From a virus (lineage: Duplodnaviria; Heunggongvirae; Uroviricota; Caudoviricetes), in the IMG/VR virus record IMGVR_UViG_2687453623_000004: a stretch of DNA of 64,000 nucleotides; one strand, 5' to 3'. Positions 4,114 to 32,747 of the stretch are shown here, one piece after another; position 1 is the stretch's first letter; the number at the start of each line of letters is the position of its first letter. The notes beneath the pieces are model-generated. The model saw only the letters and a program-made list of their open reading frames with translations. It made no database searches and was not told the DNA's origin. Position numbers and translations under genes: made by a program.

Positions 4114-4364
4114 TGAAAGAATACCGCTATTCCGGCCCGGCCAGCGGCGTCACGCTGTCGGACGGAACCGAAATCCTGCTCTGGCCGGGGAAGACGGTTT
4201 CCCTGCCGGAGGAGCATGACTACGTGAAGGTACTGGTGGCGCTGAAACATCTGACGCCGGTACCTGAAGAGACTAAACCCGCCGGCACACCGGCTGTGCA
4301 GTCACCAAAGCGCAGAAGCAGCAGTGACAGCGAAGTGAAAACGGAGGACACCCATGGCAGCTAA
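4110..4364 (+). CDS. small hypothetical phage protein (Mu gp38 position)
   Basis: 84-aa ORF, start overlaps the upstream stop and its end overlaps the sheath gene start; typical operon packing. Confidence 0.35.
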   Translation: MMKEYRYSGPASGVTLSDGTEILLWPGKTVSLPEEHDYVKVLVALKHLTPVPEETKPAGTPAVQSPKRRSSSDSEVKTEDTHGS

Positions 4365-5781
4365 CTATCTGCATGGTCCCGAAACCATTGAGGTGGAAAA
4401 CGGTGCCCGCCCGGTTAAAACGGTGAAATCTGCCGTTATTGGCCTGATTGGTACCGCCCCGATGGGGGATGTCAATACGCTGGTACAGTGCCTGTCTGAG
4501 AAAGACGCAGCGGCATTTGGCAGCCAGTTCACCGGCTTTACCATTCCGCAGGCGCTGGATGCGATTTATGACCATGGTGCAGGCACCGTTCTGGTCATTA
4601 ACGTCCTCGACCCGGCGAAACATAAAACGGCGATCGAGGATGAGGTGGTTACCTTTGACAAATCGACAGGGCAGGCCAGACTGGCGCATCCGGTTGTCGC
4701 TAATGTGGTGGTGAAAAACAGTGAAGGCAGCACCACCCACACGGCGAACACGGACTACCGTGTTGATGCGCAGGCGGGTGTGCTCACGAACCTGGGCAAG
4801 GCTATTGAGGCCGGTGGCAGCGTGAAGGTGAGCTATGAGTACGCGGACCCGTCGAAGGTGACTGCGGCGGACATCATCGGCGGGGTGAACAGCGCCGGAA
4901 ACCGAACCGGCATGAAGCTGCTTAACGACAGCTTCAACCTGTACGGCTATTTCGCCAAAATTCTGATTGCGCCGGTGTTCTGCACCCAGAAGAGTGTCGC
5001 AGTTGAGCTTATCGCCATGGCAGAGAAGCTGGGCGCGGTAACCTACATTGATGCGCCTGTCGGTACCACCTTTGCACAGGCTCTGGCAGGTCGTGGCCCG
5101 GAAGGCACCATCAACTTCAATACCAGCTCCGACCGCGTCCGTCTGTGCTATCCGCATGTGAAGGTATATGACCCGGTGACAAACACAGAGCGTCTGGAGC
5201 CGCTCAGCCAGCGTGCAGCAGGTCTGCGTGCCAGAGTCGATCTGGACAAGGGCTACTGGTGGTCATCCTCCAATCAGGAGATTCTGGGGATCACCGGCGT
5301 GGAGCGCCAGCTGTCCGCGATGATTGATGACCCGCAGAGTGAGGTGAACCTGCTTAACGAACAGGGGATCACCACGGTATTCAGCAGTTACGGCAGCGGC
5401 CTTCGTCTGTGGGGTAACCGGACGGCAGCATGGCCAACGGTCACCCATATGCGTAACTTTGAGAACGTTCGCCGCACCGGTGATGTGATCAACGAGTCCA
5501 TTCGTTATTTCAGCCAGCAGTACATCGACATGCCGATTACTCAGGCGCTGATTGATGCACTGACGGAGTCGGTCAACGCCTACGGTCGCAAAATGACTGG
5601 TGATGGTGCGGTACTGGGCTTCCGTTGCTGGTTTGATCCGGCCCGCAATCCGGAGACGGAGCTGGCCGCCGGGCACCTGTTGCTGAGCTACAAATATACG
5701 CCACCACCGCCGCTGGAGCGACTGACGTTTGAGACTGAGATCACCTCGGAATACCTGTTAACCCTGAAAGGGGGCAACTGA
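4354..5781 (+). CDS. contractile tail sheath protein (Mu gpL-like)
   Basis: 475-aa ORF; size, position upstream of the tube gene and sequence character match myovirus sheath proteins. Confidence 0.8.
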   Translation: MAANYLHGPETIEVENGARPVKTVKSAVIGLIGTAPMGDVNTLVQCLSEKDAAAFGSQFTGFTIPQALDAIYDHGAGTVLVINVLDPAKHKTAIEDEVVTFDKSTGQARLAHPVVANVVVKNSEGSTTHTANTDYRVDAQAGVLTNLGKAIEAGGSVKVSYEYADPSKVTAADIIGGVNSAGNRTGMKLLNDSFNLYGYFAKILIAPVFCTQKSVAVELIAMAEKLGAVTYIDAPVGTTFAQALAGRGPEGTINFNTSSDRVRLCYPHVKVYDPVTNTERLEPLSQRAAGLRARVDLDKGYWWSSSNQEILGITGVERQLSAMIDDPQSEVNLLNEQGITTVFSSYGSGLRLWGNRTAAWPTVTHMRNFENVRRTGDVINESIRYFSQQYIDMPITQALIDALTESVNAYGRKMTGDGAVLGFRCWFDPARNPETELAAGHLLLSYKYTPPPPLERLTFETEITSEYLLTLKGGN

Positions 5782-6302
5782 TGTCAAAGATTGAGATAAA
5801 CCGCATCACGAATGCCAACATCTATCTGGATGGTACTAACCTGCTGGGACGGGCTGAGGAAGTTAAACTCCCCGATGTCTCCATGATTATGCAGGAACAC
5901 AAGGCGCTGGGGATGGTGGGTAAGGTGGAACTCCCGGCTGGTTTTGACAAACTGGAAGGCGAAATCAAATGGAACAGCTTTTACCGCGATGCGATGCTGT
6001 CTGCCGCGAACCCGTACAGGTCGCTGGCACTGCAGTGTCGTTCCAGCGTCCAGCGCTACAGCTCGCAGGGGCTGATTGACGAAATCCCGCTGGTCACCTT
6101 CCTGACGATTATGTTCAAGAAGAACCCGCTGGGGACGTTCAAACAGCACGAGAACGCCGAGTTCTCCAGTAGCTTCACCTGCACGTATATCAGACAGGTA
6201 CTGGATGGTGAAGAGCTGCTGCAACTGGACTATCTGGCCAACATCTTCCGGGTCGGCGGTGTTGATCAACTGACTGACTACCGTATCAATATCGGGGGCT
6301 GA
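5781..6302 (+). CDS. tail tube protein (Mu gpM-like)
   Basis: 173-aa ORF whose start overlaps the sheath stop; sheath-tube gene pair. Confidence 0.65.
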   Translation: MSKIEINRITNANIYLDGTNLLGRAEEVKLPDVSMIMQEHKALGMVGKVELPAGFDKLEGEIKWNSFYRDAMLSAANPYRSLALQCRSSVQRYSSQGLIDEIPLVTFLTIMFKKNPLGTFKQHENAEFSSSFTCTYIRQVLDGEELLQLDYLANIFRVGGVDQLTDYRINIGG

Positions 6303-6304
6303 CG

Positions 6305-6586
6305 GTGAGTGTTGAACTGACGGATAAAGGAGGACGATGTGCGGCACTGGGCATGTCAAATGGTACGTGGTTTACCCTCCTTGATATTCCGGGGGTGGAA
6401 ACCCTTTTTAATACCCGTAAAACCAATGACCCGATTGACTGCACACGTTCAAAGGCCCGCAAACTGGCGGATTTGATTGAAGCATGGGAGCCTCCCGACC
6501 ACTGGTTCTCCGGCATCGGCAAATCTGAGGGAAAGACGCTTCTCATCGCTTTCCTGCGTAACTGCAAGGGGTTTCGCACTTGCTGA
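6305..6586 (+). CDS. hypothetical protein (possibly shorter, from ATG 6353)
   Basis: 93-aa ORF beginning with GTG at 6305 (G-run 6 nt upstream) or an internal ATG at 6353; no recognisable family. Confidence 0.25.
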   Translation: MSVELTDKGGRCAALGMSNGTWFTLLDIPGVETLFNTRKTNDPIDCTRSKARKLADLIEAWEPPDHWFSGIGKSEGKTLLIAFLRNCKGFRTC

Positions 6587-6683
6587 CATCACAGGGGCTC
6601 CGGCCCCTTCTTCTTAATCTCCTTTAATATCCGTCACGCGCTTCTCCCGACATACTGCCCTGAACTTACACAGGAGCACAATC

Positions 6684-7019
6684 ATGTCACAGACCCCATC
6701 CGATACTTTTAAATTGTCTTATCCCTTCACCACTGCTGCAGGCACCAGAATTGAGCTGGTTGAACTGAAACGCCTGACGGTAAAAGACCTGAAGCAGGTG
6801 CGCAAAATCAGCAAAAACCCGGCAGACTGGGACGAACCGCTGATTGCCCGCAGTACTGGTCTTCTCCCGGAGGATCTCGACAATATGGATCTGGCTGATT
6901 ACCTGCAGTTACAGAAACGATTTCAGCTCATCACGGGGATGGGTGAGAGCAACCAGGGCGCTGACGCAGGCGCAGGGGCTGCTGGCGAGATGGTTCCGGT
7001 TTCAGCCGGGGGAGATTGA
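6684..7019 (+). CDS. tail assembly chaperone (Mu gp41 / P2 gpE analogue)
   Basis: 111-aa acidic ORF immediately upstream of the tape measure gene; RBS caggagca upstream; overlapped at its 3' end by a second frame (see frameshift product). Confidence 0.6.
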   Translation: MSQTPSDTFKLSYPFTTAAGTRIELVELKRLTVKDLKQVRKISKNPADWDEPLIARSTGLLPEDLDNMDLADYLQLQKRFQLITGMGESNQGADAGAGAAGEMVPVSAGGD

Positions 7020-7101
7020 TGCCCTCGATACTGACGATCTGGAGATGTGGCTGGAGCAGGCTGAAGAGCAAATCAAAAGCGAGTACGGCGACAAATCATA
7101 G
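6684..7101 (+). other. putative programmed-frameshift product of the tail assembly chaperone (shift to the +1 frame, equivalent to -2)
   Basis: Second frame 6844..7101 has no plausible start of its own, overlaps the last third of the chaperone gene and adds ~28 aa (…RFQPGEIDALDTDDLEMWLEQAEEQIKSEYGDKS); a G5 run at 7008-7012 lies in the overlap. Confidence 0.4.
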
Positions 7102-7176
7102 TACAGACAGCCGCCAGTAGCGGCTGTTCTGCGTTATCCCCTCACGTCTTTTCACCTTCCCCGGAGGTTAACCACT

Positions 7177-10128
7177 ATGTCGGGACAGTTTTCAGTCGGC
7201 GTTGTTATCGGCGGGATGATTGGCAGCACATTCCGTTCTGCAATGAGCGGTACCCGCCGTGCGCTTGATTCCCTGAGCGATACCTCACGCCGCCTGCAGG
7301 AACGTCAGAACGCTTTAACCCGTGCAACAGAACGTTATGGTCAACTGGGTTCTTCCCGGATGCAGCATCTCAACAGCGAGCTGCTGCGGGTAAGCCGCAC
7401 CATGGAGCAAATTGAGCGCCAGCAGCGCCGTCTGTCAGCGGCATCCGCTACCAGTGATGCGCTGAAAGCTAACCGCATGGCGCTGTATGGTCAGGGGATT
7501 GAAGCGTATGGCATGGCACAGACTGTTTATCATACGGTTTCCCCTGCCGTTCAGCAGTCCATGTCTTTTCAGGACAAAATGATTGATATGTCGATCACCG
7601 CAAAATATGACAATAAAACGCGGGATGCACTTGCCGGACAGATAAAAGGCTGGGCGCTTAAATACAATCAGTATCAGGATGAGCTGCAGGAGGCGATGGG
7701 TTCACTCATCAGCGACAATATTGATAATGTGTCAGATATCGGTTTTCTGATGCCGGATATTGCCCGCGCGGCAACGGCAACACGCACGTCTGCTCAGGAC
7801 TGGGCAAAAGTGGCCGCAGTCTGGCAAAACTCCCTGAAAGGCGCGGCCAGAGATTTTGGTGCCGTTCAGAATATTATGGCTTATGCCGGTGACCAGGGGT
7901 CATTTGAAATCCCGGATCAGGTCAAGTGGATGCAGTCCCTGGCCCCAATGATGGCGGGTATTGCCAGTGGAAAAGAGGCTGTTGCTGAAATCGGGGCCAG
8001 TCTCCAGATAGCAAAAATCGGTGCAGGTTCCACCGACGAAGCAGCCAATAATTTTAAAAACTTTCTTACCAAAATTTTTGCCCGCGATACTCAGAAACAG
8101 TTTGCTGATCTGGGTATTGATTTGCAGGGATCTATTGCGAGTTATAAAGCTGCGGGGATCTCTCCGATTGAAGGGATGTTGAGTGTTATAGAACGTTACC
8201 TCAATGCCAAAAGCCCCGAAGCGCTGGCCGGCTTCAAATCAGCCATGAAAATAAAGAATGATACGGCAAGAGATGAGGCACTTCAGGCTCTGGCGAAAAA
8301 CTTTGGTCTGGGCGATATGTTCGCGGATATGCAGGTCATGGCATTTATCCGCCCGATGCTGGCCAACATGGACAGATATCGAGAGATCCGTGCCGGTGCT
8401 CTCAGGGCTGCGGATAACGATTTGCTTGCCAGTGCTTATGATCAGCGGCTGAAATCTCCCCTTGAAGCCACTAAAACACTTATGGTCAGCAGTCGCGATC
8501 TGGCAATTACGCTGGGCGATCAATTAGCTCCATCTTTTATTTCTCTGACTCAGGACTTGCTCCCACTCATTCAGGGGACAAAACACTGGGTGGCGACTCA
8601 CCCGCAATTTGTCAGTGGGGCTTTTAAGCTCATCAGTGCGCTCCTTGCGATTAAGATAGCGACTGTTGGTCTCAAACTGGGGCTGAATCTCCTTATTTCC
8701 CCCTTTGTGAACGTCTGGAAAACTGCTGTTTTACTCCGGACCAACTGGCATCGACTGACTACCGCACTCGGAGAAGGTGGCAAATTACGCTGGCTTGTCA
8801 CTGGATTCAGCCGACTGACCAGCGGAGGACTGAAACTCAGCAAAGTTCTGGCGGGCAGCCTCGTTCGCGGTTTTATGAGCGCTGCACGTGCCGTTCTCTG
8901 GATTGGGCGAGCGCTGATGATGAATCCCATCGGTCTCGTTATCACCGCTGTCGCGGCAGCAGCTTACCTTATCTACCGCAACTGGGGGGCAGTCAGTGGC
9001 TGGTTTAAACAGCGCTGGGCTGACATTCAGGAAGCCTTTAACGGCGGTATCGCGGGAACTGGTAAGCTGCTGATTAACTGGTCGCCGGCAGGCCTGCTCT
9101 ATAAAGCCTTTGCGGCTGCGCTGAAATATTTCGGCGTTACTCTGCCGGCAAAGTTCACCGACTTCGGTGGCCATCTTATCGACGGTTTGATTAACGGTAT
9201 CAAAAACAAATGGGGGTCGCTCAAATCCAGTGTAACCGGAATGGGTGACAGCATCAGTAGCTGGTTTAAACAATGCTGGGCTGACATTCAGGAAGCCTTT
9301 AACGGCGGTATCGCGGGAACTGGTAAGCTGCTGATTAACTGGTCGCCGGCAGGTCTGCTCTATAAAGCCTTTGCAGCTGCGCTGAAATATCTTGGTGTTG
9401 ATCTGCCGGCAAAGTTTACCGACTTCGGTGGCCATCTTGTCGATGGTCTGATTAACGGTATCAAAAACAAATGGGAGTCGCTCAAATCCAGTGTAACCGG
9501 AATGGGCGACAGCATCAGTGGCTGGTTCAGCGAAAAGCTGGGCATTCATTCGCCGAGCCGCGTGTTTATGGGCTTTGGTGACAATATCGCGCAGGGGGCC
9601 GCCATTGGCCTGCAGCGGACCACTCCGCTTGCAGCTCTGGCCGGGCAGCGAATGGCCAGTGAACTGCTCCCCAGAATGCCCGTGAGCATTCAGGGGCCAG
9701 AAATACGGGATAACACTTCAGGTGTTCGCTTCAGTATGCCGTTGCCCGATATCAATGGGTTTATGTCGTCTGCTAAAAATGCGATCGGAGCCGTAATCAA
9801 TAGTTTGTCTTCCATGCCCGCTATTCCGCTCTCCACCCGGGCATCGATTTTACCAGGGCAACGTCTGGCAAATGAGATGACACCGGATGTTCCCCGTATC
9901 CCCTCGCCTGAAATCCTGGCTGCCGGATATTCAGGCCGTGGTGCAGCTGCAACCGGCGGTGGAACGTCTGGTGGTATCCAGGTCAGCTTTAATCCTCAGT
10001 TTTTCCTCAATGGCAGGGAAACCACAGCGCCTGCAGGACTGACTGGTGCCCTGAATATGAGTCTGCATGAGCTGGAAAAAATGCTGGAGCGTCTGCTGGC
10101 TCAGAAACAACGTAAGGAGTACCGCTGA
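7177..10128 (+). CDS. tail tape measure protein
   Basis: 983-aa ORF after the chaperone pair; RBS ccggaggt upstream; helical N-terminal region, hydrophobic central segments, internal tandem duplication. Confidence 0.85.
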   Translation: MSGQFSVGVVIGGMIGSTFRSAMSGTRRALDSLSDTSRRLQERQNALTRATERYGQLGSSRMQHLNSELLRVSRTMEQIERQQRRLSAASATSDALKANRMALYGQGIEAYGMAQTVYHTVSPAVQQSMSFQDKMIDMSITAKYDNKTRDALAGQIKGWALKYNQYQDELQEAMGSLISDNIDNVSDIGFLMPDIARAATATRTSAQDWAKVAAVWQNSLKGAARDFGAVQNIMAYAGDQGSFEIPDQVKWMQSLAPMMAGIASGKEAVAEIGASLQIAKIGAGSTDEAANNFKNFLTKIFARDTQKQFADLGIDLQGSIASYKAAGISPIEGMLSVIERYLNAKSPEALAGFKSAMKIKNDTARDEALQALAKNFGLGDMFADMQVMAFIRPMLANMDRYREIRAGALRAADNDLLASAYDQRLKSPLEATKTLMVSSRDLAITLGDQLAPSFISLTQDLLPLIQGTKHWVATHPQFVSGAFKLISALLAIKIATVGLKLGLNLLISPFVNVWKTAVLLRTNWHRLTTALGEGGKLRWLVTGFSRLTSGGLKLSKVLAGSLVRGFMSAARAVLWIGRALMMNPIGLVITAVAAAAYLIYRNWGAVSGWFKQRWADIQEAFNGGIAGTGKLLINWSPAGLLYKAFAAALKYFGVTLPAKFTDFGGHLIDGLINGIKNKWGSLKSSVTGMGDSISSWFKQCWADIQEAFNGGIAGTGKLLINWSPAGLLYKAFAAALKYLGVDLPAKFTDFGGHLVDGLINGIKNKWESLKSSVTGMGDSISGWFSEKLGIHSPSRVFMGFGDNIAQGAAIGLQRTTPLAALAGQRMASELLPRMPVSIQGPEIRDNTSGVRFSMPLPDINGFMSSAKNAIGAVINSLSSMPAIPLSTRASILPGQRLANEMTPDVPRIPSPEILAAGYSGRGAAATGGGTSGGIQVSFNPQFFLNGRETTAPAGLTGALNMSLHELEKMLERLLAQKQRKEYR
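8988..9530. repeat. intragenic tandem duplication (two ~261-bp units plus a partial third) inside the tape measure gene
   Basis: Unit beginning tggtttaaacagcgctgggctgacattcagg recurs 261 bp later with few substitutions; the protein shows the ~87-aa block WFKQ…GMGDSIS twice in frame. Confidence 0.85.
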
Positions 10129-18780: not shown

Positions 18781-20064
18781 TCAGCCGGGTTGACTTATCC
18801 GCGCCAATTGCTCGAAATAGTCTGGAAAAGTTTTAGCGGTACATTTTGGATCAAGAATCGTCACAGGCGTATCTGATAATGCGACCAGCGAGAAACACAT
18901 CGCCATCCGGTGATCATTATAAGTGGCGATCTCAGCAAATTTCAGTTTTTCCGGTGGCGTAATGCGAATGAAATCATGCCCCTCTTCGACTTCCGCACCG
19001 ACTTTACGCAGTTCTGTTGCCATCGCAAACAGGCGATCGGTCTCTTTAACACGCCAGTTATAGATATTGCGCAGCGTGGTGGTGCCTTTTGCAAATAACG
19101 CCGCGGTGGCAATGGTCATCGCCGCATCGGGAATATGGTTCATATCCATATCAATGGCGTTCAGTTCACCACGCGTGCAGGAAATATAATCATCGCCCCA
19201 GCAAATGGTCGCGCCCATTTTTTCCAGAACATCAGCAAAGCGAATATCACCCTGCATACTGTTGCGTCCAATGCCGGTCACTTTTACAGTGCCGCCTCTG
19301 ATTGCTGCTGCTGCCAGGAAATAAGAAGCCGAAGATGCATCGCCTTCAACCAAATAAGTGCCCGGAGACTGGTAAGACTGCCCCCCTTTTACGACAAATT
19401 GTTGATAGTGCTGATTTTCAATTTCAACACCAAACGTCTTCATCAGATTGAGGGTGATATCGATATAAGGTTTAGAAACCAGATCGCCTTTAATACGAAT
19501 CACCGTATCTTCCGGCGCAAGAGGCGCAGTCATTAACAGTGCGGTGAGGAACTGGCTGGAAACGGAGCCATCAACATCAACGTTGCCGCCAGTAAAGCCG
19601 CCCTGTAAACGCAATGGCGGATAATTTTCTTGTTCCAGGTAAGTGATCTTCGCCCCGCCCTGGCGCAGCGCATCCACCAGATGACCAATCGGGCGTTCTT
19701 TCATTCGCGGTTCACCGCTCAGTACAATATCATTGCTACCCAGGCAAAGTGCTGCCGCCAGCGGACGCATTGCCGTTCCGGCGTTACCGAGGAACAACTC
19801 CCGGGCACTTTCTGCGTGTAATGGACCACCGTTACCGATAATTTCGCAACGCGTACGATCGGCTGAAAGCGTATAGCTTACCCCTAACGCTGTTAATGCA
19901 TTCAGCATATGGCGCACGTCATCGCTATCCAGCAGATTGGTTAATACTGTTTTGCCGTGTGCTAATGCCGCCAGCAATAAAGCGCGGTTAGAAACGCTCT
20001 TGGAACCGGGCAGATTAATAGTGCCATCGACACGAGCGATGGGTTGTAACGTTAGGGATTCCAT
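18781..20064 (-). CDS. aroA: 3-phosphoshikimate 1-carboxyvinyltransferase (EPSP synthase)
   Basis: 427-aa [38 protein letters not shown]… matching E. coli AroA along its length with a few substitutions relative to my recollection of K-12. Confidence 0.95.
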
Positions 20065-20086
20065 GAACTCAACTCTCTACAACAGA

Positions 20087-20112
20087 AATAAAAACCCCAC
20101 AGGCTGGCTGTG
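20087..20112 (-). terminator. putative intrinsic terminator/attenuator between serC and aroA
   Basis: Minus strand reads ccccacagccagcctgtgggg followed by tttttattt; lies 25-45 nt after the serC stop. Confidence 0.45.
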
Positions 20113-20134
20113 GGGATTATGCAAAATTTCGACA

Positions 20135-21223
20135 TTAGCCGTGACGACGTTCGAACTCAACCATGAAGTCTGTCAGTGCTTTAACACCTTCCAGCGGCAT
20201 GGCGTTATAAATAGACGCACGCATTCCGCCGACCACTCGGTGACCTTTCAGCGCATGTAAGCCCGCAGCGAAAGACTCTTCGAGGAACAATTTATCAAGC
20301 GCGCTATCCGCCAACTGGAACGGCACGTTCATCCGCGAACGGTTAGCTTTCGCCACATCATTGCGGTAGAAATCGCTGTTATCAATCACCCCATACAGCA
20401 GTTCTGCTTTTTGCTGATTGATCTTATCCATTGCAGCCACACCGCCGTTCGCTTTCAGCCATTTGAAGACCAGGCCAGATAAGTACCAGGCAAATGTCGG
20501 CGGCGTGTTGAACATGGAATCGTTATCGTTGAGGATGGAGTAATCCAGAATCGATGGGCAGGCGATATTCGCTTTGCCCAGCAAATCTTCACGAACGATG
20601 ACGATTGTCAGGCCAGCCGGGCCGATATTTTTCTGCGCGCCAGCGTAAATTACACCATAACGGCTGACATCAATCGGACGGGAAAGAATGGTTGAAGAGA
20701 AGTCAGCGGCGACCACCACGTCTTTACCGAAGTCTGGTGTTTCATCGATAGCGATACCATCGATGGTTTCGTTCGGGCAGTAATGCATATAAGCAGCATT
20801 ATCAGAGAGTTGCCATTCACTCATTGGCTTAACTGCGCGAAGACCATCAACGGTCACTTTCGCATCAAACACATTTGGTGTGCAGTATTTTTTCGCTTCT
20901 TTGATAGCACTTGCTGCCCAGTAACCCGCATCAACATAATCTGCAGTGGTTTTATCACCAAGAATATTCAACGGTACTGCAGCAAATTGACCGCGACCAC
21001 CGCCATGGCAGAACAATACTTTGTAGTTGGAGGGGACGTTAAGAAGATCGCGAAAATCCTTCTCGGCTTCCTCTGCAACCTGAATGAACTCTTTGCCACG
21101 GTGACTCACTTCCATCACCGACGTACCAAGACCGTTCCAGTCGCGCAGTTCCTGTTGAGCCTGTTTAAGCACCTCTGCCGGTAGCATTGCCGGACCAGAA
21201 CTAAAATTGAAGATTTGAGCCAT
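20135..21223 (-). CDS. serC: phosphoserine aminotransferase
   Basis: 362-aa [49 protein letters not shown]… matching E. coli SerC; upstream of aroA as in the serC-aroA operon. Confidence 0.95.
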
Positions 21224-21421
21224 TTCCCCTCACCACGTTGCGTTGCTATTAACCCGCGGTCAATCGATTGCGACCACAGGTAATACATTATTCCAGTGGC
21301 TATCGGTTTTATCATTCAGTGACACACATCGCAATGAGTAAAACCGTTGAGGGCAAAAATGTGGCTTGCATCACACAAAAGAATCTCTCGGATTATTAGC
21401 AAAAAGCCGATGTTTTTGCTG

Positions 21422-22114
21422 TCAGGTCACCCGTTTAGCTCGACTTGCCTTCGTCCATTCTGGATTTGCACAGCGCGGACATAATTGTTTTTCCCCCGCG
21501 TTCATATGAATGATTTCACTGCAACGGATGCAGGCATAGTCCGCCGACTCCGGCACCACTTTGTAACGCTGAGTACAGTCACTGGGTAAAATAAGTAACC
21601 CCGGTTTCACCTTGTCATCTTCAAAGAAATAAACACTGATTTGCCCGTTGGTTTCGAGAATCGCCAGACGTACCTGCCCCAACTGCTCTACACCGCGCAA
21701 TCGTAGCTCCATAAAGAACTCAAATTCCGTCATGTTGGAGTTATTGAGTTTCGACCAGGCCAGCTCGCCGTCTTCAATAATGACAACCGGCTTGCCTTCC
21801 AGAAGATCTTCCAGTTTTTCACTGTGCGCCATCAACCACATTACCAGGCGGTATAACAACGCCAGAGTAATAAAGACGATAAGTACCGGGACCATCGGCA
21901 CATCATCATAAAACGCCACATCTCCCGCCGCTGAACCCAGTGTCAGAATGATTAACACTTCAAACAGCGACATCTGCCGCACACCGCGTCTTCCGGTCAT
22001 TTTGAGGAACAAAAAAACCAGTACAAAGGTATAAAGACTACGTAGTGCAACTTCGCCAAGGAAATCAAAAGGCACTTTATCAAATGCCATACGGTGGAGA
22101 TCGAACGCCTTCAT
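21422..22114 (-). CDS. ycaP: inner-membrane protein YcaP (DUF421 family)
   Basis: 230-aa ORF with hydrophobic N-terminal half and Cys-rich C-terminus; position between serC and ycaO as in E. coli. Confidence 0.8.
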   Translation of the reverse strand: MKAFDLHRMAFDKVPFDFLGEVALRSLYTFVLVFLFLKMTGRRGVRQMSLFEVLIILTLGSAAGDVAFYDDVPMVPVLIVFITLALLYRLVMWLMAHSEKLEDLLEGKPVVIIEDGELAWSKLNNSNMTEFEFFMELRLRGVEQLGQVRLAILETNGQISVYFFEDDKVKPGLLILPSDCTQRYKVVPESADYACIRCSEIIHMNAGEKQLCPRCANPEWTKASRAKRVT

Positions 22115-22243
22115 TTTTATGCTCTTATCGTGGTTTATCCGCTAAAAGCATAGCCAACAGTTCATCGGCATGGCGGCGGTGATAGCGCCTTTGAGATAAA
22201 ACCCGTATTATTGCGCGCTTTCCGTACGACTAAAGTGATTTTC

Positions 22244-24004
22244 ATGACGCAAACATTTATCCCCGGCAAAGATGCCGCTCTGGAAGATTCCATCGCTCGC
22301 TTCCAGCAAAAACTTTCAGACCTCGGTTTTCAGATTGAAGAGGCCTCCTGGCTGAATCCCGTGCCTAATGTCTGGTCTGTACATATTCGCGACAAAGAGT
22401 GCGCACTGTGTTTTACCAACGGTAAAGGCGCAACCAAAAAAGCGGCGCTGGCTTCTGCCCTCGGTGAATATTTCGAGCGTCTCTCAACCAACTACTTTTT
22501 TGCGGACTTCTGGCTGGGCGAAACCATCGCCAACGGCCCATTCGTGCATTATCCCAACGAAAAATGGTTCCCACTGACCGAAAATGACGATGTACCAGAA
22601 GGGCTGCTCGATGACCGTCTGCGCGCATTTTACGATCCGGAGAATGAACTGACCGGTAGTATGCTGATTGACCTGCAATCCGGTAACGAAGATCGTGGTA
22701 TTTGCGGTCTACCGTTTACGCGCCAGTCCGACAATCAGACCATTTATATTCCGATGAATATCATTGGTAACTTGTACGTTTCTAACGGTATGTCTGCTGG
22801 CAATACCCGTAACGAAGCACGCGTTCAGGGGTTATCCGAAGTTTTCGAACGTTACGTGAAAAACCGCATTATTGCTGAAAGCATCAGCTTGCCGGAAATC
22901 CCGGCAGACGTGCTGGCACGTTATCCAGCAGTAGTTGAAGCGATCGAAACGCTGGAAGCGGAAGGTTTCCCGATCTTCGCTTATGACGGTTCGCTTGGCG
23001 GCCAGTATCCGGTGATTTGCGTGGTACTGTTCAATCCTGCTAACGGTACCTGCTTTGCCTCATTCGGTGCGCATCCTGATTTTGGCGTTGCACTGGAACG
23101 TACCGTGACCGAGTTGCTGCAAGGTCGTGGCCTGAAAGATCTGGATGTGTTTACTCCACCAACCTTCGATGATGAAGAAGTCGCTGAACATACCAACCTC
23201 GAAACGCACTTTATCGATTCCAGCGGTTTAATCTCCTGGGACCTGTTCAAGCAGGATGCCGATTATCCGTTTGTTGACTGGAGCTTCTCCGGCACCACGG
23301 AAGAAGAGTTCGCCACGCTGATGGCTATCTTCAAAAAGGAAGATAAAGAAGTTTATATTGCCGATTACGAGCATCTGGGTGTCTACTCTTGCCGTATTAT
23401 CGTACCTGGCATGTCCGATATTTATCCGGCTGAAGATCTGTGGTTGGCGAATAACAGTATGGGCAGCCATTTACGTGAAACGATTCTGTCACTGCCCGGT
23501 AGCGAGTGGGAAAAGGAAGATTACCTGAACCTCATCGAGCAACTGGATGAAGAAGGTTTTGATGACTTTACCCGCGTGCGTGAACTGTTGGGCCTGGCGA
23601 CCGGGTCGGATAACGGCTGGTACACTCTGCGTATCGGTGAATTAAAAGCCATGCTGGCGCTGGCTGGTGGCGATCTGGAACAGGCTCTGGTCTGGACCGA
23701 ATGGACGATGGAGTTTAACTCATCAGTATTCAGCCCGGAACGCGCCAATTATTATCGCTGCCTGCAAACATTGTTATTACTGGCGCAGGAAGAAGATCGC
23801 CAGCCGCTGCAATATCTGAATGCGTTTGTTCGCATGTACGGCGCAGATGCCGTGGAAGCCGCCAGTGCAGCAATGAGCGGCGAAGCGGCGTTTTATGGCT
23901 TGCAACCAGTAGATAGCGATCTGCACGCGTTTGCTGCACATCAGTCGTTGTTGAAGGCCTACGAAAAGCTGCAACGCGCCAAAGCAGCATTCTGGGCAAA
24001 ATAA
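22244..24004 (+). CDS. ycaO: YcaO-domain protein (ribosomal protein S12 methylthiotransferase accessory factor)
   Basis: 586 aa from ATG 22244 (MTQTFIPGKDAALEDSIARFQQKLSDLGF…), matching E. coli YcaO; the listed 22211 start is an upstream TTG. Confidence 0.9.
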   Translation: MTQTFIPGKDAALEDSIARFQQKLSDLGFQIEEASWLNPVPNVWSVHIRDKECALCFTNGKGATKKAALASALGEYFERLSTNYFFADFWLGETIANGPFVHYPNEKWFPLTENDDVPEGLLDDRLRAFYDPENELTGSMLIDLQSGNEDRGICGLPFTRQSDNQTIYIPMNIIGNLYVSNGMSAGNTRNEARVQGLSEVFERYVKNRIIAESISLPEIPADVLARYPAVVEAIETLEAEGFPIFAYDGSLGGQYPVICVVLFNPANGTCFASFGAHPDFGVALERTVTELLQGRGLKDLDVFTPPTFDDEEVAEHTNLETHFIDSSGLISWDLFKQDADYPFVDWSFSGTTEEEFATLMAIFKKEDKEVYIADYEHLGVYSCRIIVPGMSDIYPAEDLWLANNSMGSHLRETILSLPGSEWEKEDYLNLIEQLDEEGFDDFTRVRELLGLATGSDNGWYTLRIGELKAMLALAGGDLEQALVWTEWTMEFNSSVFSPERANYYRCLQTLLLLAQEEDRQPLQYLNAFVRMYGADAVEAASAAMSGEAAFYGLQPVDSDLHAFAAHQSLLKAYEKLQRAKAAFWAK

Positions 24005-24055
24005 AATCAAATAGCCTACGCAATGTAGGCTTAATGATTCGTCTGAGTTATATTA

Positions 24056-24086
24056 CGGGGCGTTTTTTTAATGCCCCGCTTTACAT
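24056..24086 (+). terminator. putative terminator hairpin after ycaO
   Basis: cggggcgtttttttaatgccccg hairpin with T-run; a second perfect 7-bp stem hairpin (agcctac gcaat gtaggct) at 24013-24031. Confidence 0.3.
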
Positions 24087-24335
24087 ATATTTGCATTAAT
24101 AAAATAATTGTAATTATAAGGTTAAATATCGGTAATTCGTATTTAATAAATACGATCGATATTGTTACTTTATTCGCCAGGTGCTCCCTTTTAATTAACT
24201 GTTTTAGCGGAGGATGCGGAAAAAATTCAACTCATTTGTTAATTTTTAAAATTTATTTTTATTTGGATAATCAAATATTTACTCCGTATTTGCATAAAAA
24301 CCATGCGAGTTACGGGCCTATAAGCCAGGCGAGAT

Positions 24336-24349
24336 ATGATCTATATCAA
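24336..24349. promoter_or_regulatory. putative FNR box (TTGAT-N4-ATCAA-like) with downstream -10 in the focA-pflB promoter region
   Basis: aTGATctatATCAA at 24336-24349, then tataat at ~24357-24362, about 50 nt upstream of the focA GTG start; the operon is anaerobically FNR-activated. Confidence 0.4.
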
Positions 24350-24409
24350 TTTCTCATCTATAATGCTTTGTTAGTATCTCGTCGCCGACTTAATAAAGAG
24401 AGAGTTAGT

Positions 24410-25267
24410 GTGAAAGCTGACAACCCTTTTGATCTTTTACTTCCTGCTGCAATGGCCAAAGTGGCCGAAGAGGCAGGTGTCTATAAAGCAACGAAACATC
24501 CGCTTAAGACTTTCTATCTGGCGATTACCGCCGGTGTTTTCATCTCAATCGCATTCGTCTTCTATATCACAGCAACCACTGGCACAGGTACAATGCCCTT
24601 CGGCATGGCAAAACTGATTGGCGGCATTTGCTTCTCTCTGGGGTTGATTCTTTGTGTTGTCTGCGGAGCCGATCTCTTTACTTCCACAGTGTTGATTGTT
24701 GTTGCCAAGGCGAGTGGGCGCATCACCTGGGGTCAGTTGGCGAAAAACTGGCTAAATGTTTATTTTGGCAACCTGGTCGGCGCACTGCTGTTTGTACTTT
24801 TAATGTGGCTTTCCGGCGAGTATATGACCGCAAATGGTCAATGGGGACTAAACGTCCTACAAACCGCCGACCACAAAGTGCACCATACTTTTATTGAGGC
24901 CGTCTGTCTTGGTATCCTGGCAAACCTGATGGTATGTCTGGCAGTATGGATGAGTTATTCTGGCCGCAGCCTGATGGACAAAGCGTTCATTATGGTGCTG
25001 CCGGTCGCGATGTTTGTTGCCAGCGGTTTTGAGCACAGTATCGCAAACATGTTTATGATCCCGATGGGTATTGTAATCCGCGACTTCGCATCTCCGGAAT
25101 TCTGGACCGCTGTCGGTTCTGCACCGGAAAATTTTTCTCACCTGACCGTGATGAACTTCATCACTGATAACCTGATTCCGGTTACGATCGGTAATATTAT
25201 CGGCGGTGGTTTGTTGGTTGGGTTGACATACTGGGTCATTTACCTGCGTGAAAACGATCACCATTAA
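24410..25267 (+). CDS. focA: formate channel FocA
   Basis: 285 aa from GTG 24410 ((V)KADNPFDLLLPAAMAKVAEEAGVYKATKHPLKTFYLAITAGV…); matches E. coli FocA; the long upstream extension in the ORF track is AT-rich leader. Confidence 0.9.
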   Translation: MKADNPFDLLLPAAMAKVAEEAGVYKATKHPLKTFYLAITAGVFISIAFVFYITATTGTGTMPFGMAKLIGGICFSLGLILCVVCGADLFTSTVLIVVAKASGRITWGQLAKNWLNVYFGNLVGALLFVLLMWLSGEYMTANGQWGLNVLQTADHKVHHTFIEAVCLGILANLMVCLAVWMSYSGRSLMDKAFIMVLPVAMFVASGFEHSIANMFMIPMGIVIRDFASPEFWTAVGSAPENFSHLTVMNFITDNLIPVTIGNIIGGGLLVGLTYWVIYLRENDHH

Positions 25268-25321
25268 TGGTTGTCGAAGTACGCAGTAAATAAAAAATCC
25301 ACTTAAGAAGGTAGGTGTTAC

Positions 25322-27604
25322 ATGTCCGAGCTTAATGAAAAGTTAGCCACAGCCTGGGAAGGTTTTACCAAAGGTGACTGGCAGAATGAAGTAAACGTCC
25401 GTGACTTCATTCAGAAAAACTACACTCCGTACGAGGGTGACGAGTCCTTCCTGGCTGGCGCTACTGAAGCGACCACCACCCTGTGGGACAAAGTAATGGA
25501 AGGCGTTAAACTGGAAAACCGCACTCACGCGCCAGTTGACTTTGACACCGCTGTTGCTTCCACCATCACCTCTCACGACGCTGGTTACATCAACAAGCAG
25601 CTTGAGAAAATCGTTGGTCTGCAGACTGAAGCTCCGCTGAAACGTGCTCTTATCCCGTTCGGTGGTATCAAAATGATCGAAGGTTCCTGCAAAGCGTACA
25701 ACCGCGAACTGGACCCGATGATCAAAAAAATCTTCACTGAATACCGTAAAACTCACAACCAGGGCGTGTTCGACGTTTACACTCCGGACATCCTGCGTTG
25801 CCGTAAATCCGGTGTTCTGACCGGTCTGCCAGATGCTTATGGCCGTGGTCGTATCATCGGTGACTACCGTCGCGTTGCACTGTACGGTATCGACTACCTG
25901 ATGAAAGACAAACTTGCACAGTTCACCTCTCTGCAGGCTGATCTGGAAAACGGCGTAAACCTGGAACAGACTATCCGTCTGCGCGAAGAAATCGCTGAAC
26001 AGCACCGCGCTCTGGGTCAGATGAAAGAAATGGCTGCGAAATACGGCTACGACATCTCTGGTCCGGCTACTAACGCTCAGGAAGCTATCCAGTGGACTTA
26101 CTTCGGCTACCTGGCTGCTGTTAAGTCTCAGAACGGTGCTGCAATGTCCTTCGGTCGTACCTCCACCTTCCTGGATGTGTACATCGAACGTGACCTGAAA
26201 GCTGGCAAGATCACCGAACAAGAAGCGCAGGAAATGGTTGACCACCTGGTCATGAAACTGCGTATGGTTCGCTTCCTGCGTACTCCGGAATACGATGAAC
26301 TGTTCTCTGGCGACCCGATCTGGGCAACCGAATCTATCGGTGGTATGGGCCTCGACGGTCGTACCCTGGTTACCAAAAACAGCTTCCGTTTCCTGAACAC
26401 CCTGTACACCATGGGTCCGTCTCCGGAACCGAACATGACCATTCTGTGGTCTGAAAAACTGCCGCTGAACTTCAAGAAATTCGCCGCTAAAGTGTCCATC
26501 GACACCTCTTCTCTGCAGTATGAGAACGATGACCTGATGCGTCCGGACTTCAACAACGATGACTACGCTATTGCTTGCTGCGTAAGCCCGATGATCGTTG
26601 GTAAACAAATGCAGTTCTTCGGTGCGCGTGCAAACCTGGCGAAAACCATGCTGTACGCAATCAACGGTGGCGTTGACGAAAAACTGAAAATGCAGGTTGG
26701 TCCGAAATCTGAGCCGATCAAAGGCGATGTCCTGAACTATGATGAAGTGATGGAGCGCATGGATCACTTCATGGACTGGCTGGCTAAACAGTACATCACT
26801 GCACTGAACATCATCCACTACATGCACGACAAGTACAGCTACGAAGCCTCTCTGATGGCGCTGCACGACCGTGACGTTATCCGCACCATGGCGTGTGGTA
26901 TCGCTGGTCTGTCCGTTGCTGCTGACTCCCTGTCTGCAATCAAATATGCGAAAGTTAAACCGATTCGTGATGAAGACGGTCTGGCTATCGACTTCGAAAT
27001 CGAAGGCGAATACCCGCAGTTTGGTAACAACGATCCGCGTGTAGATGACCTGGCTGTTGACCTGGTAGAACGTTTCATGAAGAAAATTCAGAAACTGCAC
27101 ACCTACCGTGACGCTATCCCGACTCAGTCTGTTCTGACCATCACTTCTAACGTTGTGTATGGTAAGAAAACTGGTAACACCCCAGACGGTCGTCGTGCTG
27201 GCGCGCCGTTCGGACCGGGTGCTAACCCGATGCACGGTCGTGACCAGAAAGGTGCTGTAGCGTCTCTGACTTCCGTTGCTAAACTGCCGTTTGCTTACGC
27301 TAAAGATGGTATCTCCTACACCTTCTCTATCGTTCCGAACGCACTGGGTAAAGACGACGAAGTTCGTAAGACCAACCTGGCTGGTCTGATGGATGGTTAC
27401 TTCCACCACGAAGCATCCATCGAAGGTGGTCAGCACCTGAACGTTAACGTGATGAACCGTGAAATGCTGCTCGACGCGATGGAAAACCCGGAAAAATATC
27501 CGCAGCTGACCATCCGTGTATCTGGCTACGCAGTACGTTTCAACTCGCTGACTAAAGAACAGCAGCAGGACGTTATTACTCGTACCTTCACTCAATCTAT
27601 GTAA
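25322..27604 (+). CDS. pflB: pyruvate formate-lyase 1
   Basis: 760-aa [64 protein letters not shown]… to the glycyl-radical C-terminus; RBS aaggtagg upstream. Confidence 0.97.
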
Positions 27605-29880: not shown

Positions 29881-32327
29881 TTAACCGTCATGCATCATGC
29901 TGGCACGGGCGCGCGCTCGTTTATCCCGCTCGTATTTTTCGAGCGCATCCTGTAACTGGCGGTCGAGCTGTGTCCCCGGCGCAGTACCACCCGTCAGGCT
30001 GATGTGATATTCGTTTTTACTCTGGTCTACATAAGAGCGGCCAGCCGGTGCCGTGACCGGCTGATAAGCCTGATAACCTGCATAAGAGCTGGTCGCCGGA
30101 ATATAACCACCGCTGCCATACGTGGCGGCTTGAGTTCTGGCGGCGGTCTGGTCAAGTGTGTCTGACTCTTTGTTGATAACACCGAGTTTTTCCAGTACCC
30201 AGTCAATACCACTGCGCAGTTTGTTGAACGCATTAAGCGGCAGCATCAGCGCGTCAGCCAGTGCCTGCCCGAACATGACGCCCGTGTCACGGCAACGGTT
30301 CAGGGTGTCCTGGGTGGCTTTGACCGGGGCAATCAGGTTTTTAAACCACTGCCACGCGGCCTGTAACTTTTCACCCAGCCAGTCAAACACCGGTTTAAGT
30401 GGCGTGAACAGTTCCCCCACCGGCGTAAATGCCGCTTTCAGCCCTTCCACCACACCGCCAAAGAATGCGCTGACAGGCTCCCAGTATTTACGGATAAGCA
30501 ACGCCCCGGCGACAATGGCGGCCACCACGGCCACAACCGGCCAGCTAATCGCCCCGATGGCGGTCATAACAGCACTGCCAACCGTCGTGAAGATTGCCCC
30601 CATTGCGCCTGCTGCCGCGATGATGGCATTGATGCCGGTGATAACCGGCCAGGCTACGAGGCCAATGGCACCGATGACACCAATCAGTGCCAGTGCACCA
30701 CCGACAATGATGCCGATGGTTGACGCCAGTGATTTGTTTTTCTGGATCCAGCCGTCGAGTTTTAACACATACTTTGTGGCCGTCTGCGTGAGATTACGCA
30801 GTGCGCCTTCCTGCTGGTCAAACAGGTCAGTCCCCACCGCCTCATAAGCGGACTGAAACTCCTTAAAGTCACCGCCGAGGTTATCCTGCATGATTTTAAC
30901 CAGCTCTTCCGTTTTACCGTCCGAGGCTTTCAGCGTGGCGGTCAGCTTATCCAGTTTTCCGCTTGCTGCCGCTGCCAGTAAAACGTTCGCTGATTTCAGG
31001 GCTTCCTCACCAAAAATGGTTTTAAGGTATTCCCCCTTCTGAGACGTTCCCAGCTTGTGTTTATCAAAGCTGGCCTGAATCTCTTTCAGAATGGTGAACA
31101 ACGGACGCATATTTCCCTTTTTGTCCGAGGTTTTAACGCCAAGCTCTTTGAGTGCATCCCATGCTTTTCCAGTCGGTGCCTGTAATCGGGTGACAACGGC
31201 ACTACTACCCGTACCCGCCATTGACCCCCTGATGTTATTGTCATGCAGCACACCTGTCATGGCCGCTGCCTGCTCAAGACTTACGCCTGCCGTCCTCGCA
31301 ACCGGCCCGAGGTAAGTCAGTGCATCACTGAGTCCCTGAAAATCAGCGCCGACTTATTCATCGTTGCAGACAACACGTCGCCCACATGGCTGACATCATC
31401 ATTTGACAGTTGAAAGGATGCCTTAGTCCCCAGCAACAGTTGCGCGTTTTCTTCCATCGACCGCTGATTCGCCAGTGCCATATTCAGCGTGACCGGCGTT
31501 GCCGCCTGAATAGCCGCAGCATCTCCACCCGCTTTCGCAATGATAATCTGCGCACCGGCCGCATCATCCGCCGAGGCGGCTGTGTTGTCACCGAGCTGGC
31601 GCGCCTGTTTGCGGAGTGCGGTCATTTCGGCGGAGTCTTTTGCCACTCCGAGCACGGCCTGCAATTCTGAGTTTTTCTGCGCAAACTCATAACCGGGCAT
31701 CAGCAGCTTAACTCCGGCCATCGTTCCCGCAGCAGCAATCCCCGCACCGGCAGCGCCCACTGAGGCCATATTTCCGGCCAGTTCCTTTCCTGCCTGATAA
31801 CGCTGTTTGACTGCGTTAAGTTTTGCCTGTTGTACACTGACACGCGCCAGCGCGTCACGCTGACGGTTAAGCTGTGCGGTGGTTTCACTGATACGGTTTT
31901 TCAGTCCCTGCTCATCATGTGCAAGATTGCGGGTATTAATTCCCACAGCGGCCAGTTCTCGCTGCTGGCGTTTAACGGAATCTGTCAGGCGGTTATATTT
32001 CGCCTGTAAGTCCTCCGCCGCACGCTTTGCGGATTCCAGCACTTTCGCCTGAGCACGGGTCGGACGTTCGGTGTTTTTAAACTGTGTGGCAAGGGCTTCG
32101 GCTTCCTGTCGAGCCTTTTCAAATGCATGACCAGTCACGGCGAGCTGTGCACTGGTCTTGCGGAATCCCTCAATACGGGATGCGTGACCGTTCAGCTCGC
32201 GCAGTGATTTTTGTGTTTCCCGGATATCCCCCGACAGCGACTTGCTCGCTGTACGGATGGATTTAAACGGGCGGGATGCCTGGTCAACAGCCCTGAGCAA
32301 TACCTGTAATTTTACATTGTTACTCAT
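29881..32327 (-). pseudogene. T: tail tape measure gene T, interrupted by a frameshift (two ORFs: 31317..32327 and 29881..31353)
   Basis: N-terminal 336-aa ORF ends with TGA at 31317-31319 while the C-terminal frame is open from 31353 down; the two frames overlap by ~35 nt; combined length ~810 aa fits P2 gpT. Confidence 0.6.
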
Positions 32328-32747
32328 TCGTGTTTCCGCTTCGCCGGAGCGCCTTTTCGCGCCATGTGATGAGTTCGGTCAGGCTCATGGGATACAGTTC
32401 TGATGGCGGCCAGTGAAATATCACTGCCACATCCGCCATCAGGTCATCGACCGAGAGATTTTTCGGAAACGTTACTGCACCGAGTTCGGCGACAAAAAAC
32501 CGACCACCTTACCGGCCAGCGCCACAAGGTCAGGCAGCTCCAGCGCGGCGACCTCCTGCTCAGTCAGCATCGGTGCCGTCATGCGCGGCAGCACTTTAAT
32601 CAGTGCATCGACTTCGGAGTTCGCGACCGCAGCCAGACTGACACCGCGCAGCGTCCCGGCATTGGGTTTCATCAGCGTGACCTGTTCGATAACCTGCTCA
32701 CCACGCTTGACCGGATTGTCCAGGGTAATCACATTTTCTTTGTTCAT
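32320..32747 (-). other. E': E+E' -1 programmed frameshift product (slippery T-TTT-TTG at 32493-32499, minus strand)
   Basis: In the E frame the codons GGT TTT TTG contain the heptamer TTTTTTG; the -1 frame then stays open for ~55 codons (VAELGAVTFPKNLSVDDLMADVAVIFHWPPSELYPMSLTELITWREKALRRSGNTNE) to TAA at 32320-32322, overlapping the T start. Confidence 0.65.
32472..32747 (-). CDS. E: tail assembly chaperone E
   Basis: 91-aa ORF MNKENVITLDNPVKRGEQVIEQVTLMKPNAGTLRGVSLAAVANSEVDALIKVLPRMTAPMLTEQEVAALELPDLVALAGKVVGFLSPNSVQ. Confidence 0.85.
   Translation of the reverse strand: MNKENVITLDNPVKRGEQVIEQVTLMKPNAGTLRGVSLAAVANSEVDALIKVLPRMTAPMLTEQEVAALELPDLVALAGKVVGFLSPNSVQ

Follow-up and report, generated by a model that had tools for sequence, protein, structure and literature searches.

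The 64,000-nucleotide stretch of viral DNA analysed here (IMG/VR record IMGVR_UViG_2687453623_000004, Caudoviricetes; hereafter the window) carries a tail assembly chaperone gene overlapped by a second open reading frame (ORF), and the locus raises the question of where and how the two are joined into one protein. The chaperone ORF lies on the + strand in frame 0 (6684 mod 3 = 0) and runs from ATG 6684 to TGA 7017-7019 (111 aa); the extension frame is open from 6844 to a TAG at 7099-7101. As 6844 mod 3 = 1, the extension is shifted by +1 (or, equivalently, -2) against the chaperone. Direct reading of the sequence thus agreed with the first-pass annotation on the frame relation, on the presence of a G5 run at 7008-7012 and on the need for a +1/-2 shift, the extension being joinable to the chaperone only via a shift into +1. 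The TTG at 6844 is merely the first possible start past a stop codon and is meaningless by itself. The -1 frame is closed, and a -1 shift on U_UUU_UUG of the P2 type is not found here. Comparison of related sequences instead points to a +1 ribosomal shift at CGA_UUU_C (6918-6924) as the event that joins the pair and makes an extended fusion, a reading to which we give a probability of roughly 0.75.

Around 180 relatives were compared overall. They include 79 IMG/VR relatives with 54-100% protein identity, and variation was followed column by column in the 59 unique close relatives. Distant clades were added (BcepMu, Salmonella, Ralstonia phage YO107_2, Pseudomonas phages Komp_PAO1_1 and Bise, and further IMG/VR relatives). 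The viral-contig and reference set (IMG/VR plus reference records) holds 97 unique sequences that stand for 148 loci in five clades, and a set from GTDB holds 37 species-level loci, 36 of which are of the +1 type. These loci are phylogenetically related, and the counts given below overstate the number of independent observations.

The first line of evidence is the frame in which the sequence varies. In the 59 unique close relatives, variation up to ~6917 falls at frame-0 third positions and variation from ~6939 falls at +1-frame third positions, almost exclusively so from 6966. The selected frame appears to change at about 6925-6945. At three positions with four-fold variation (6939, 6951 and 6954), the changes leave the +1-frame residue (Gly, Ala and Thr) as it is and alter the frame-0 residue, and in two relatives (L020 and L021) they create a frame-0 stop. 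Past 6966, changes that are silent in +1 alter the residue or introduce a stop in frame 0. Because the variation is synonymous in +1, the +1 frame would be translated from at least ~6939, 70 nt before the G-run.

The transframe coding region on the + strand (6925..7101, 58 codons plus the TAG at 7099-7101) is open from UUU_C through to its stop in every relative examined, and the pattern of variation indicates that the extension is under strong purifying selection. Between 6925 and 7019 the two frames overlap on the + strand, the frame-0 tail being aa 81-111 of the short product. This tail differs in length among relatives, with stops at the equivalents of 6954, 6996 or 7017, and judging from its variation it is largely an unconstrained passenger beyond ~6966. 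The view that the +1 ORF is not expressed at all, and is a remnant or a chance open frame, agrees with the fact that neither annotation nor proteomic support was found for it, but is extremely improbable given the strong third-position pattern, the homology to P2 E' described below and the maintenance of the open frame in at least six clades from Gammaproteobacteria, Betaproteobacteria and Geobacter. As an observation apart, the segment 7003-7090 of the extension is nearly invariant in nucleotides, with few synonymous changes, though the N-terminal parts of the relatives' chaperones are only 66-85% identical; recent recombination or an extra constraint at the nucleotide level could be responsible.

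Stop codons in the two frames set the limits of the shift. On the 5' side, Ralstonia and Pseudomonas clades carry a +1-frame stop four codons upstream of a conserved Phe codon, with no intervening start codon. On the 3' side, a frame-0 stop lies 6-9 codons past the same Phe in L137, L141, L151, Bise and the Geobacter locus L182. Taken over all clades, the stops of the two frames therefore confine the shift to 6912-6948. Selection narrows the bracket at its 3' end, where a +1-frame Trp codon (6940..6942, + strand; W86, in the motif W-[VLAI]-x) is invariant in enterobacterial relatives and nearly invariant in 21 diverse predicted fusions. Frame 0 over the same bases reads NTG GNN and its residues vary (M/L/V, then G/D/A/V). 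Given the invariance of this Trp in the enterobacterial relatives, the bracket is reduced to about 6912-6939.

Inside this bracket lies the proposed shift cassette, CGA_UUU_C (6918..6924, + strand), made of Arg79, Phe80 and the skipped C 6924, with UUU_C itself at 6921-6924, 87 bases upstream of the G-run. The 8-mer CGATTTCA (6918-6925) is invariant in the 59 unique close relatives. TTT_C is present in all 97 unique viral-contig and reference loci of the five clades, in Pseudomonas phage Bise, and in 31 of the 36 +1-type species-level GTDB loci, which belong to Enterobacterales, Burkholderiales, Pseudomonas and Geobacter. An Azoarcus locus has CUU_C at this position, which is equally slippery and is the slippery codon of prfB. 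UUU_C is the sole conserved slippery element inside the bracket.

Because the loci are related by descent, a contrast between codons is a fairer statistic than these counts. Eleven residues are invariant across all six clade representatives, and Phe alone among them is encoded by a single codon, TTT, which makes up 17% of the Phe codons in the annotated genes of BcepMu. The preceding Arg is CGA in all 78 unique IMG/VR and reference sequences where that residue is Arg (78/78), while CGA accounts for ~5-6% of the Arg codons in these phages. Codon usage was counted from annotated BcepMu genes and window genes alone; pooling the long open frames of all high-GC loci gave an estimate contaminated by non-coding frames, and it was dropped. 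Elsewhere the cassette takes other forms, with UCC_UUU_CGC in BcepMu and GUG_UUU_CGG in the Pseudomonas type.

A second candidate for a +1 slip lies within the same bracket, at GGG_A (6936-6939), just 5' of the Trp. A tRNA-Gly moving from GGG to GGA would give the product ...RFQLITG-WVR..., full re-pairing by tRNA-Gly(UCC) is possible in the window allele, and the frame-0 residues Q-x-I-T-G are kept up to the site in the enterobacterial clade. The sequence is, however, not conserved. Most close relatives have GGG_C, Photorhabdus has GGA_U, Lonsdalea GGC_G and Salmonella AGC_A, and BcepMu has no Gly codon between the Phe and the Trp. As this slip would also leave the invariance of TTT and CGA unexplained, we consider it quite improbable.

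We propose that most ribosomes would read frame 0 to the end and make the 111-aa chaperone, and that a minority would shift +1 at CGA_UUU_C. The P-site tRNA-Phe (anticodon GAA) on UUU 6921-6923 would re-pair with UUC 6922-6924 and match it better, as a G-C pair takes the place of a G.U pair. A +1 slip of this tRNA re-pairs perfectly, whereas a -2 slip at the same place lands on GAU and is implausible, so that a +1 shift is most likely here rather than a -2 slip of the Mu type. Translation would resume at AGC 6925 and give a 138-aa fusion, whose C-terminal GpE'-like domain would be the "T" part. The rare CGA, read by I.A wobble, would be in the E site during the slip and may promote it. Decoding of CGA through this wobble is said to be inefficient (Curran, 1995), and a UUU_CGG dicodon was reportedly studied by Schwartz and Curran (1997). 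Downstream RNA structure is apparently not involved. The sequences show the frame relation, the selection on +1, the bracket, the conservation of UUU_C and CGA and the domain order of the fusion; the ribosomal nature of the shift, its +1 step at this exact codon, its efficiency and the part played by CGA are inferred.

The predicted fusion has a mass of 15.85 kDa and consists of M1-F80 followed by SSSRGWVRATRALTQAQGLLARWFRFQPGEIDALDTDDLEMWLEQAEEQIKSEYGDKS. Pfam family PF10109 matches its residues 8-82, and a GpE'-like segment (the T-domain) occupies aa 100-132 (6982..7080, + strand), as indicated by a sub-threshold PF06528 match and by hhalign. When 21 predicted fusions were aligned with P2 gpE+E' using hhalign, the alignment covered 122 columns and spanned both domains (E=2.1e-6, probability 89%), and F80 aligned with the P2 slip site GFLF. 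The order PF10109 then a PF06528-like segment is common to the fusion, to P2 gpE+E' and to a homologue from a Pasteurella phage whose extension is in the -1 frame. Searches of NCBIfam and of PDB sequences found nothing useful.

Several points weigh against the proposed site. Four Pseudomonas loci (L180, L185, L186 and L189) encode Leu, by UUG or CUG, at the Phe position and still keep the +1 extension intact, so either UUU is not strictly required or another mechanism operates in this subclade. These loci come from Pseudomonas siliginis, P. anatoliensis and two Pseudomonas sp.; the Leu codon is followed by CGG GAA AUG, and two of the four also have Cys at the +1-frame Trp position. One may speculate that they use another site or a shift that needs no re-pairing, for instance with tRNA-Gly reading the +1 GGG of C_GGG. 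In the GTDB set, the Lelliottia locus L174 has CGG and not CGA. The frame-0 codon in the A site, CAG, is not rare, and the C at the fourth position is partly forced by the next residue (Gln or His). The loci are kin to each other and do not count as independent events. The PF06528 (Phage_P2_GpE) match in the fusion covers profile positions 4-36 of 37 and scores 18.4 bits, below the cut-off of 23. Finally, no upstream Shine-Dalgarno (SD)-like element was seen before the UUU in the window or in BcepMu, and folding of the 75 nt past UUU_C in seven clade representatives gave Z values from -2.25 to +0.31 and no shared fold. As no fold is common to the seven representatives, we claim no structural stimulator. 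With neither type of stimulator found, the efficiency of the shift may be very low.

[quoted passage not shown] The run is in frame 0 just before the stop in the window allele, where the codons read GCC GGG GGA GAT TGA in frame 0 and CCG GGG GAG ATT GAT in +1. Either a -2 slip (tRNA-Gly from GGA 7011-7013 to GGG 7009-7011) or a +1 slip (from GGG 7008-7010 to 7009-7011) is chemically possible, the verified -2 site of Mu is likewise a G5 run, and databases hold "fused" variants in which G5 has become G4. The comparative evidence does not favor this site. In about half of the close relatives (IMG/VR), a frame-0 TAG lies at the equivalent of 6996-6998, 10 nt 5' of the run; it arises where CGG has become AGA, both of them Arg codons in the +1 frame. 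Because this stop precedes the run, a ribosome in frame 0 cannot reach it in those relatives, and yet their extension is intact. The run itself is not a conserved slip site: in the window it is part of the +1-frame Pro-Gly-Glu codons CCG GGG GAG within the motif FQPGEI, two relatives (L077 and L079) read CCGAGTGAG at this position, and the Burkholderia, Pseudomonas, Ralstonia and Salmonella clades have Pro-Ser-Glu and no G-run. The +1 frame is already selected for ~70 nt upstream of the run, and a shift on G5 would remove the first third of the GpE'-like domain (LLARWFRFQP), with loss of the PF06528 match. The Mu register (xGG_GGG) is also different, and the window protein is not a member of the Gp41_Mu family. 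A slip on G5 is therefore very unlikely.

Some variation around the run was seen in the databases. Single-nucleotide deletions at or near 7008-7012 occur in several assemblies (L076, L081 and L157; proteins P0003-P0009), and they either disrupt the extension or run frame 0 straight into ...EIDALD. Sequencing errors in the homopolymer may explain them, or the alleles may be real and either defective or phase-variant. In-frame fusions from a set of 5.8 billion proteins were tried as a guide to the junction and rejected: the 138-aa matches join the frames at differing homopolymers (G5 to G4, an A-run, a G4), come mostly from read-level assemblies, and look like indel errors or mutants that are uninformative on the translational site. 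Known transcriptional slippage tracts are far longer than T3 or G5, and transcriptional slippage was rejected on these grounds.

A different way to express the extension would be as a separate 52-aa protein started at GTG 6943 (6943..6945, + strand), with no frameshift. This is the start a gene caller might choose. The family phrog_8286 (54 aa) matches aa 34-85 of the ORF, a GGGGA precedes the GTG with an energy of -5.7 kcal/mol, and BcepMu gp42, phiE255 gp16 and Komp CDS0016 are all annotated as separate ORFs. However, most relatives have GTA or GCA in place of the GTG, which is also 3' of the conserved Trp and only 3 nt from the SD-like GGGGA. Candidate starts differ in position by clade, with 9 of 93 unique loci having no ATG, GTG or TTG before the conserved core, and only 4 of the 93 reach an SD energy of -6 kcal/mol or below, when the real gene starts of the window range from -5.8 to -10.7. 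Moreover, in P2 and Mu the homologous extension is joined to its chaperone through a frameshift that has been shown or verified. We thus find independent initiation unlikely as the conserved mechanism. The first-pass annotation had named an own start codon with a ribosome binding site (RBS) as the finding that would speak against a fused product: no such start is conserved, but the window allele does carry GTG 6943 with its GGGGA, and some independent initiation is possible there.

The identity of the short product is clear. The chaperone gene (6684..7019, + strand), which would encode the short "G" or gpE-like product, matches Pfam PF10109 Phage_TAC_7 ("E, or 41 or 14") over aa 8-81 with E=5.5e-21, and the bit scores of this N-terminal domain (74.8-79.2) are above the Pfam gathering cut-off of 25. 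It also matches phrog_166 ("tail protein") and is annotated elsewhere as "tail protein E" or "phage tail assembly protein" (PhiKM, RefSeq). An SD-like AGGAG (6672..6676, + strand) precedes it, and the anti-SD duplex energy of -6.6 kcal/mol is within the range of other real gene starts in the window. A G/GT-type class of tail chaperones with a programmed frameshift was reportedly described by Xu, Hendrix and Duda in 2004. As in that type, the pair sits between the tube and the tape measure genes, with one small extra ORF besides, its second ORF overlaps the end of the first in another frame and has no conserved start, and a conserved slippery sequence (UUU_C) lies in the overlap. The locus is a tail assembly chaperone pair of the lambda G/GT and P2 E/E+E' type, in a BcepMu-like prophage with a P2-like tail module. 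Region 5700-7300 of the window is 100% identical to Escherichia phage PhiKM, of the genus Bcepmuvirus, and 640 out of the 5426 complete E. coli genomes searched carry the chaperone locus (6600-7200).

The tail module is P2-like by its Pfam families (FII, GpU, X and GPD). It comprises a sheath gene (4354-5781), the tube gene FII (5781-6302; PF04985), a small DUF7739-like ORF between the tube and chaperone genes (6305-6586), the chaperone pair, the gene for the tape measure protein (7177..10128, + strand), which is the expected client of the chaperone and was recognized by phrog_28, phrog_5690, related matches and the PhiKM annotation, and then the gpU, gpX and gpD genes, identified with Pfam. 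The small ORF of the 6305-6608 region encodes 93 aa, matches phrog_1239 and, weakly, DUF7739, and is absent from the BcepMu, Salmonella and Pseudomonas relatives. Past it, at 6593-6608, comes a GC-rich hairpin that ends in a T-rich tail and resembles a terminator. Between the extension stop codon and the tape measure RBS, 7107-7127 can form a perfect hairpin of 8 bp (ACAGCCGC cagta GCGGCTGT) that lacks a T-run and did not come up as a terminator. Within the tape measure gene, 261 nt (87 aa) are duplicated in tandem and in perfect register (8993-9514), and the copies are 94% identical. In the PhiKM record the same gene contains a sequencing gap, and RefSeq flags the copy of strain SK1144 as an incomplete pseudogene; the 261-nt repeat probably led to assembly problems in both. 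After the BcepMu-like tail genes come the host genes aroA, serC, ycaO, focA and pflB (18781-27604). As these start at 18781, the prophage ends before ~18.7 kb in the window, and the early and transposition genes of the BcepMu-like prophage are not found downstream of the tail module.

The same locus exists in BcepMu (AY539836), the type phage of the genus, where gp41 is the chaperone and gp42 the +1-frame ORF. In the BcepMu record, gp42 is the counterpart of "lambda G" and gp43 comes from it by slippage, whereas in our reading gp41 and gp42 would be joined by a +1 shift at UCC_UUU_CGC. The BcepMu annotation is probably wrong on this locus. The "gp43" itself ([quoted passage not shown]) is antisense to a small membrane-protein gene located between the chaperone and the tape measure genes. 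That gene is kept in phiE255 (gp17), Ralstonia YO107_2 and Pseudomonas phage Bise. The stretches concerned are 6978-7364 in L082 (BcepMu), 1263-1505 in L156, 1866-2105 in L084 and 1182-1472 in L155. Because it lies antisense to a conserved gene, gp43 is probably spurious, an artefact of the high GC content. The window has no such gene and only a 75-nt spacer at this place.

The +1 fusion is annotated in none of the records examined (RefSeq E. coli, PhiKM, BcepMu, phiE255, Komp and Bise), and a wider list of matching phage records, including the vB_E* Burkholderia phages, showed short products only under the match. A literature search found no paper on this slip site. Programmed +1 shifts in tail chaperone genes are known, with 350 forward cases tabulated (PMC10274946), and the present site is a well-supported candidate for a new one. 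As the examined records annotate nothing beyond the short chaperone or a stray small ORF, a GT-like fusion, essential for tail assembly, would have been systematically missed in a clade whose members are spread across Proteobacteria. A rule for annotating the whole clade could be to look for TTT_C at the end of the TAC_7 domain. The slip site may lie ~30 codons upstream of the zero-frame stop, and searches at the end of the overlap, or reading by eye, miss such sites. These loci also form a natural set of bacterial UUU_C +1 sites with varied flanking codons, of use for studying how the E site and the A site influence +1 frameshifting.

Depending on the phage, tail chaperone genes rely on -1, -2 or +1 shifts (PMC5009743), and P2 has one of the known systems closest to the window pair. 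In both, the pair lies between the tube (FII) and tape measure (T) genes of a P2-type module, the fusion carries PF10109 and then a PF06528-like domain, and the junction falls at the same place of the alignment, on a Phe UUU codon. The P2 shift is, however, a -1 shift at GGT_TTT_TTG (annotated in AF063097), so that the extension is in -1 in P2 and in +1 here, and the site is the heptamer U_UUU_UUG in one case and UUU_C in the other. Past the slip site the frame-0 product continues for 31 codons in the window and for 6 in P2. BLASTP gave no alignment between the window chaperone and P2 gpE, and the connection was made by profile methods alone. The window also holds a second, P2-like prophage on the - strand, with a canonical gpE (32472-32747) nearly identical to that of P2 and an E' extension in the -1 frame that ends at 32320 (32320-32747); one stretch of DNA thus contains the homologous pair in its -1 and in its +1 form. 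The tape measure gene of this second prophage seems to be split into two ORFs (29881-31260 and 31317-32327).

The comparison with Mu is less direct. The -2 frameshift that the first-pass annotation named for Mu is real: the joined coding sequence in AF083977 is noted as "verified -2 translational frameshift in PMID 15469818", and reviews agree. The Mu gp41/Mu_56 site is CGG_GGG_CGA, with an efficiency of ~2% and its G5 located 7 codons before the stop. As in the window, the Mu extension is in the +1/-2 frame, the tail assembly chaperone lies upstream of the tape measure gene, and PF10109 is matched, if weakly for Mu. The verified Mu product reads ...QERG|GEWLR right after the shift, and W-[LV]-R occurs a few residues past the junction in the window fusion. 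The Mu register (CGG_GGG_CGA) is nevertheless not that of the window (GGG_GGA), and -2 re-pairing is impossible at the conserved UUU_C. The window protein does not match PF23746 Gp41_Mu, which Mu itself matches at 8e-34; BLASTP against gp41 gave no alignment and hhalign gave E=0.05. The proposed analogy with the Mu pair is not supported by this alignment. Because the Mu link is weak and the tail module is P2-like, the "Mu-like" character of the prophage stops short of the chaperone gene.

In mechanism, the site can be compared with the UUU_Y class of +1 sites (E. coli UUU_Ynn, Yersinia YopN-TyeA and influenza A PA-X). All share a zero-frame UUU followed by a pyrimidine, on which a P-site tRNA-Phe can re-pair with UUC, and the +1 frame in the window is open and encodes a conserved product. 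Sites of this class need no stop codon or evident RNA structure, and low efficiency is expected of them. The difference is in the flanks, as the window-type sites usually have CGA on the 5' side and CAG, CAA or CUG, none of them rare, on the 3' side; the shift itself is predicted here. In PA-X, the site is UCC_UUU_CGU and the E-site codon contributes to the shift (PMC5009743), and weaker E-site pairing favors +1 shifting in RF2 (PMC5009743; PMC3498833). The UCC/GCC/GUG_UUU_CGN form found in Burkholderia and Pseudomonas relatives is nearly that of PA-X. We tentatively suggest, as a view that may well prove too broad, that BcepMu-like phages carry a dedicated +1 cassette, CGA_UUU_C in the enterobacterial and Ralstonia members or UCC/GCC/GUG_UUU_CGN in the Burkholderia and Pseudomonas members, with the E-site CGA (or UCC) as a selected stimulator. 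If so, the Pseudomonas subclade lacking UUU would use a +1 shift independent of re-pairing, as in Ty3, at the same nucleotide. One TAC_7 and GpE' pair would then have come to three solutions near one codon, -1 in P2, -2 in Mu and +1 in the phages described here.

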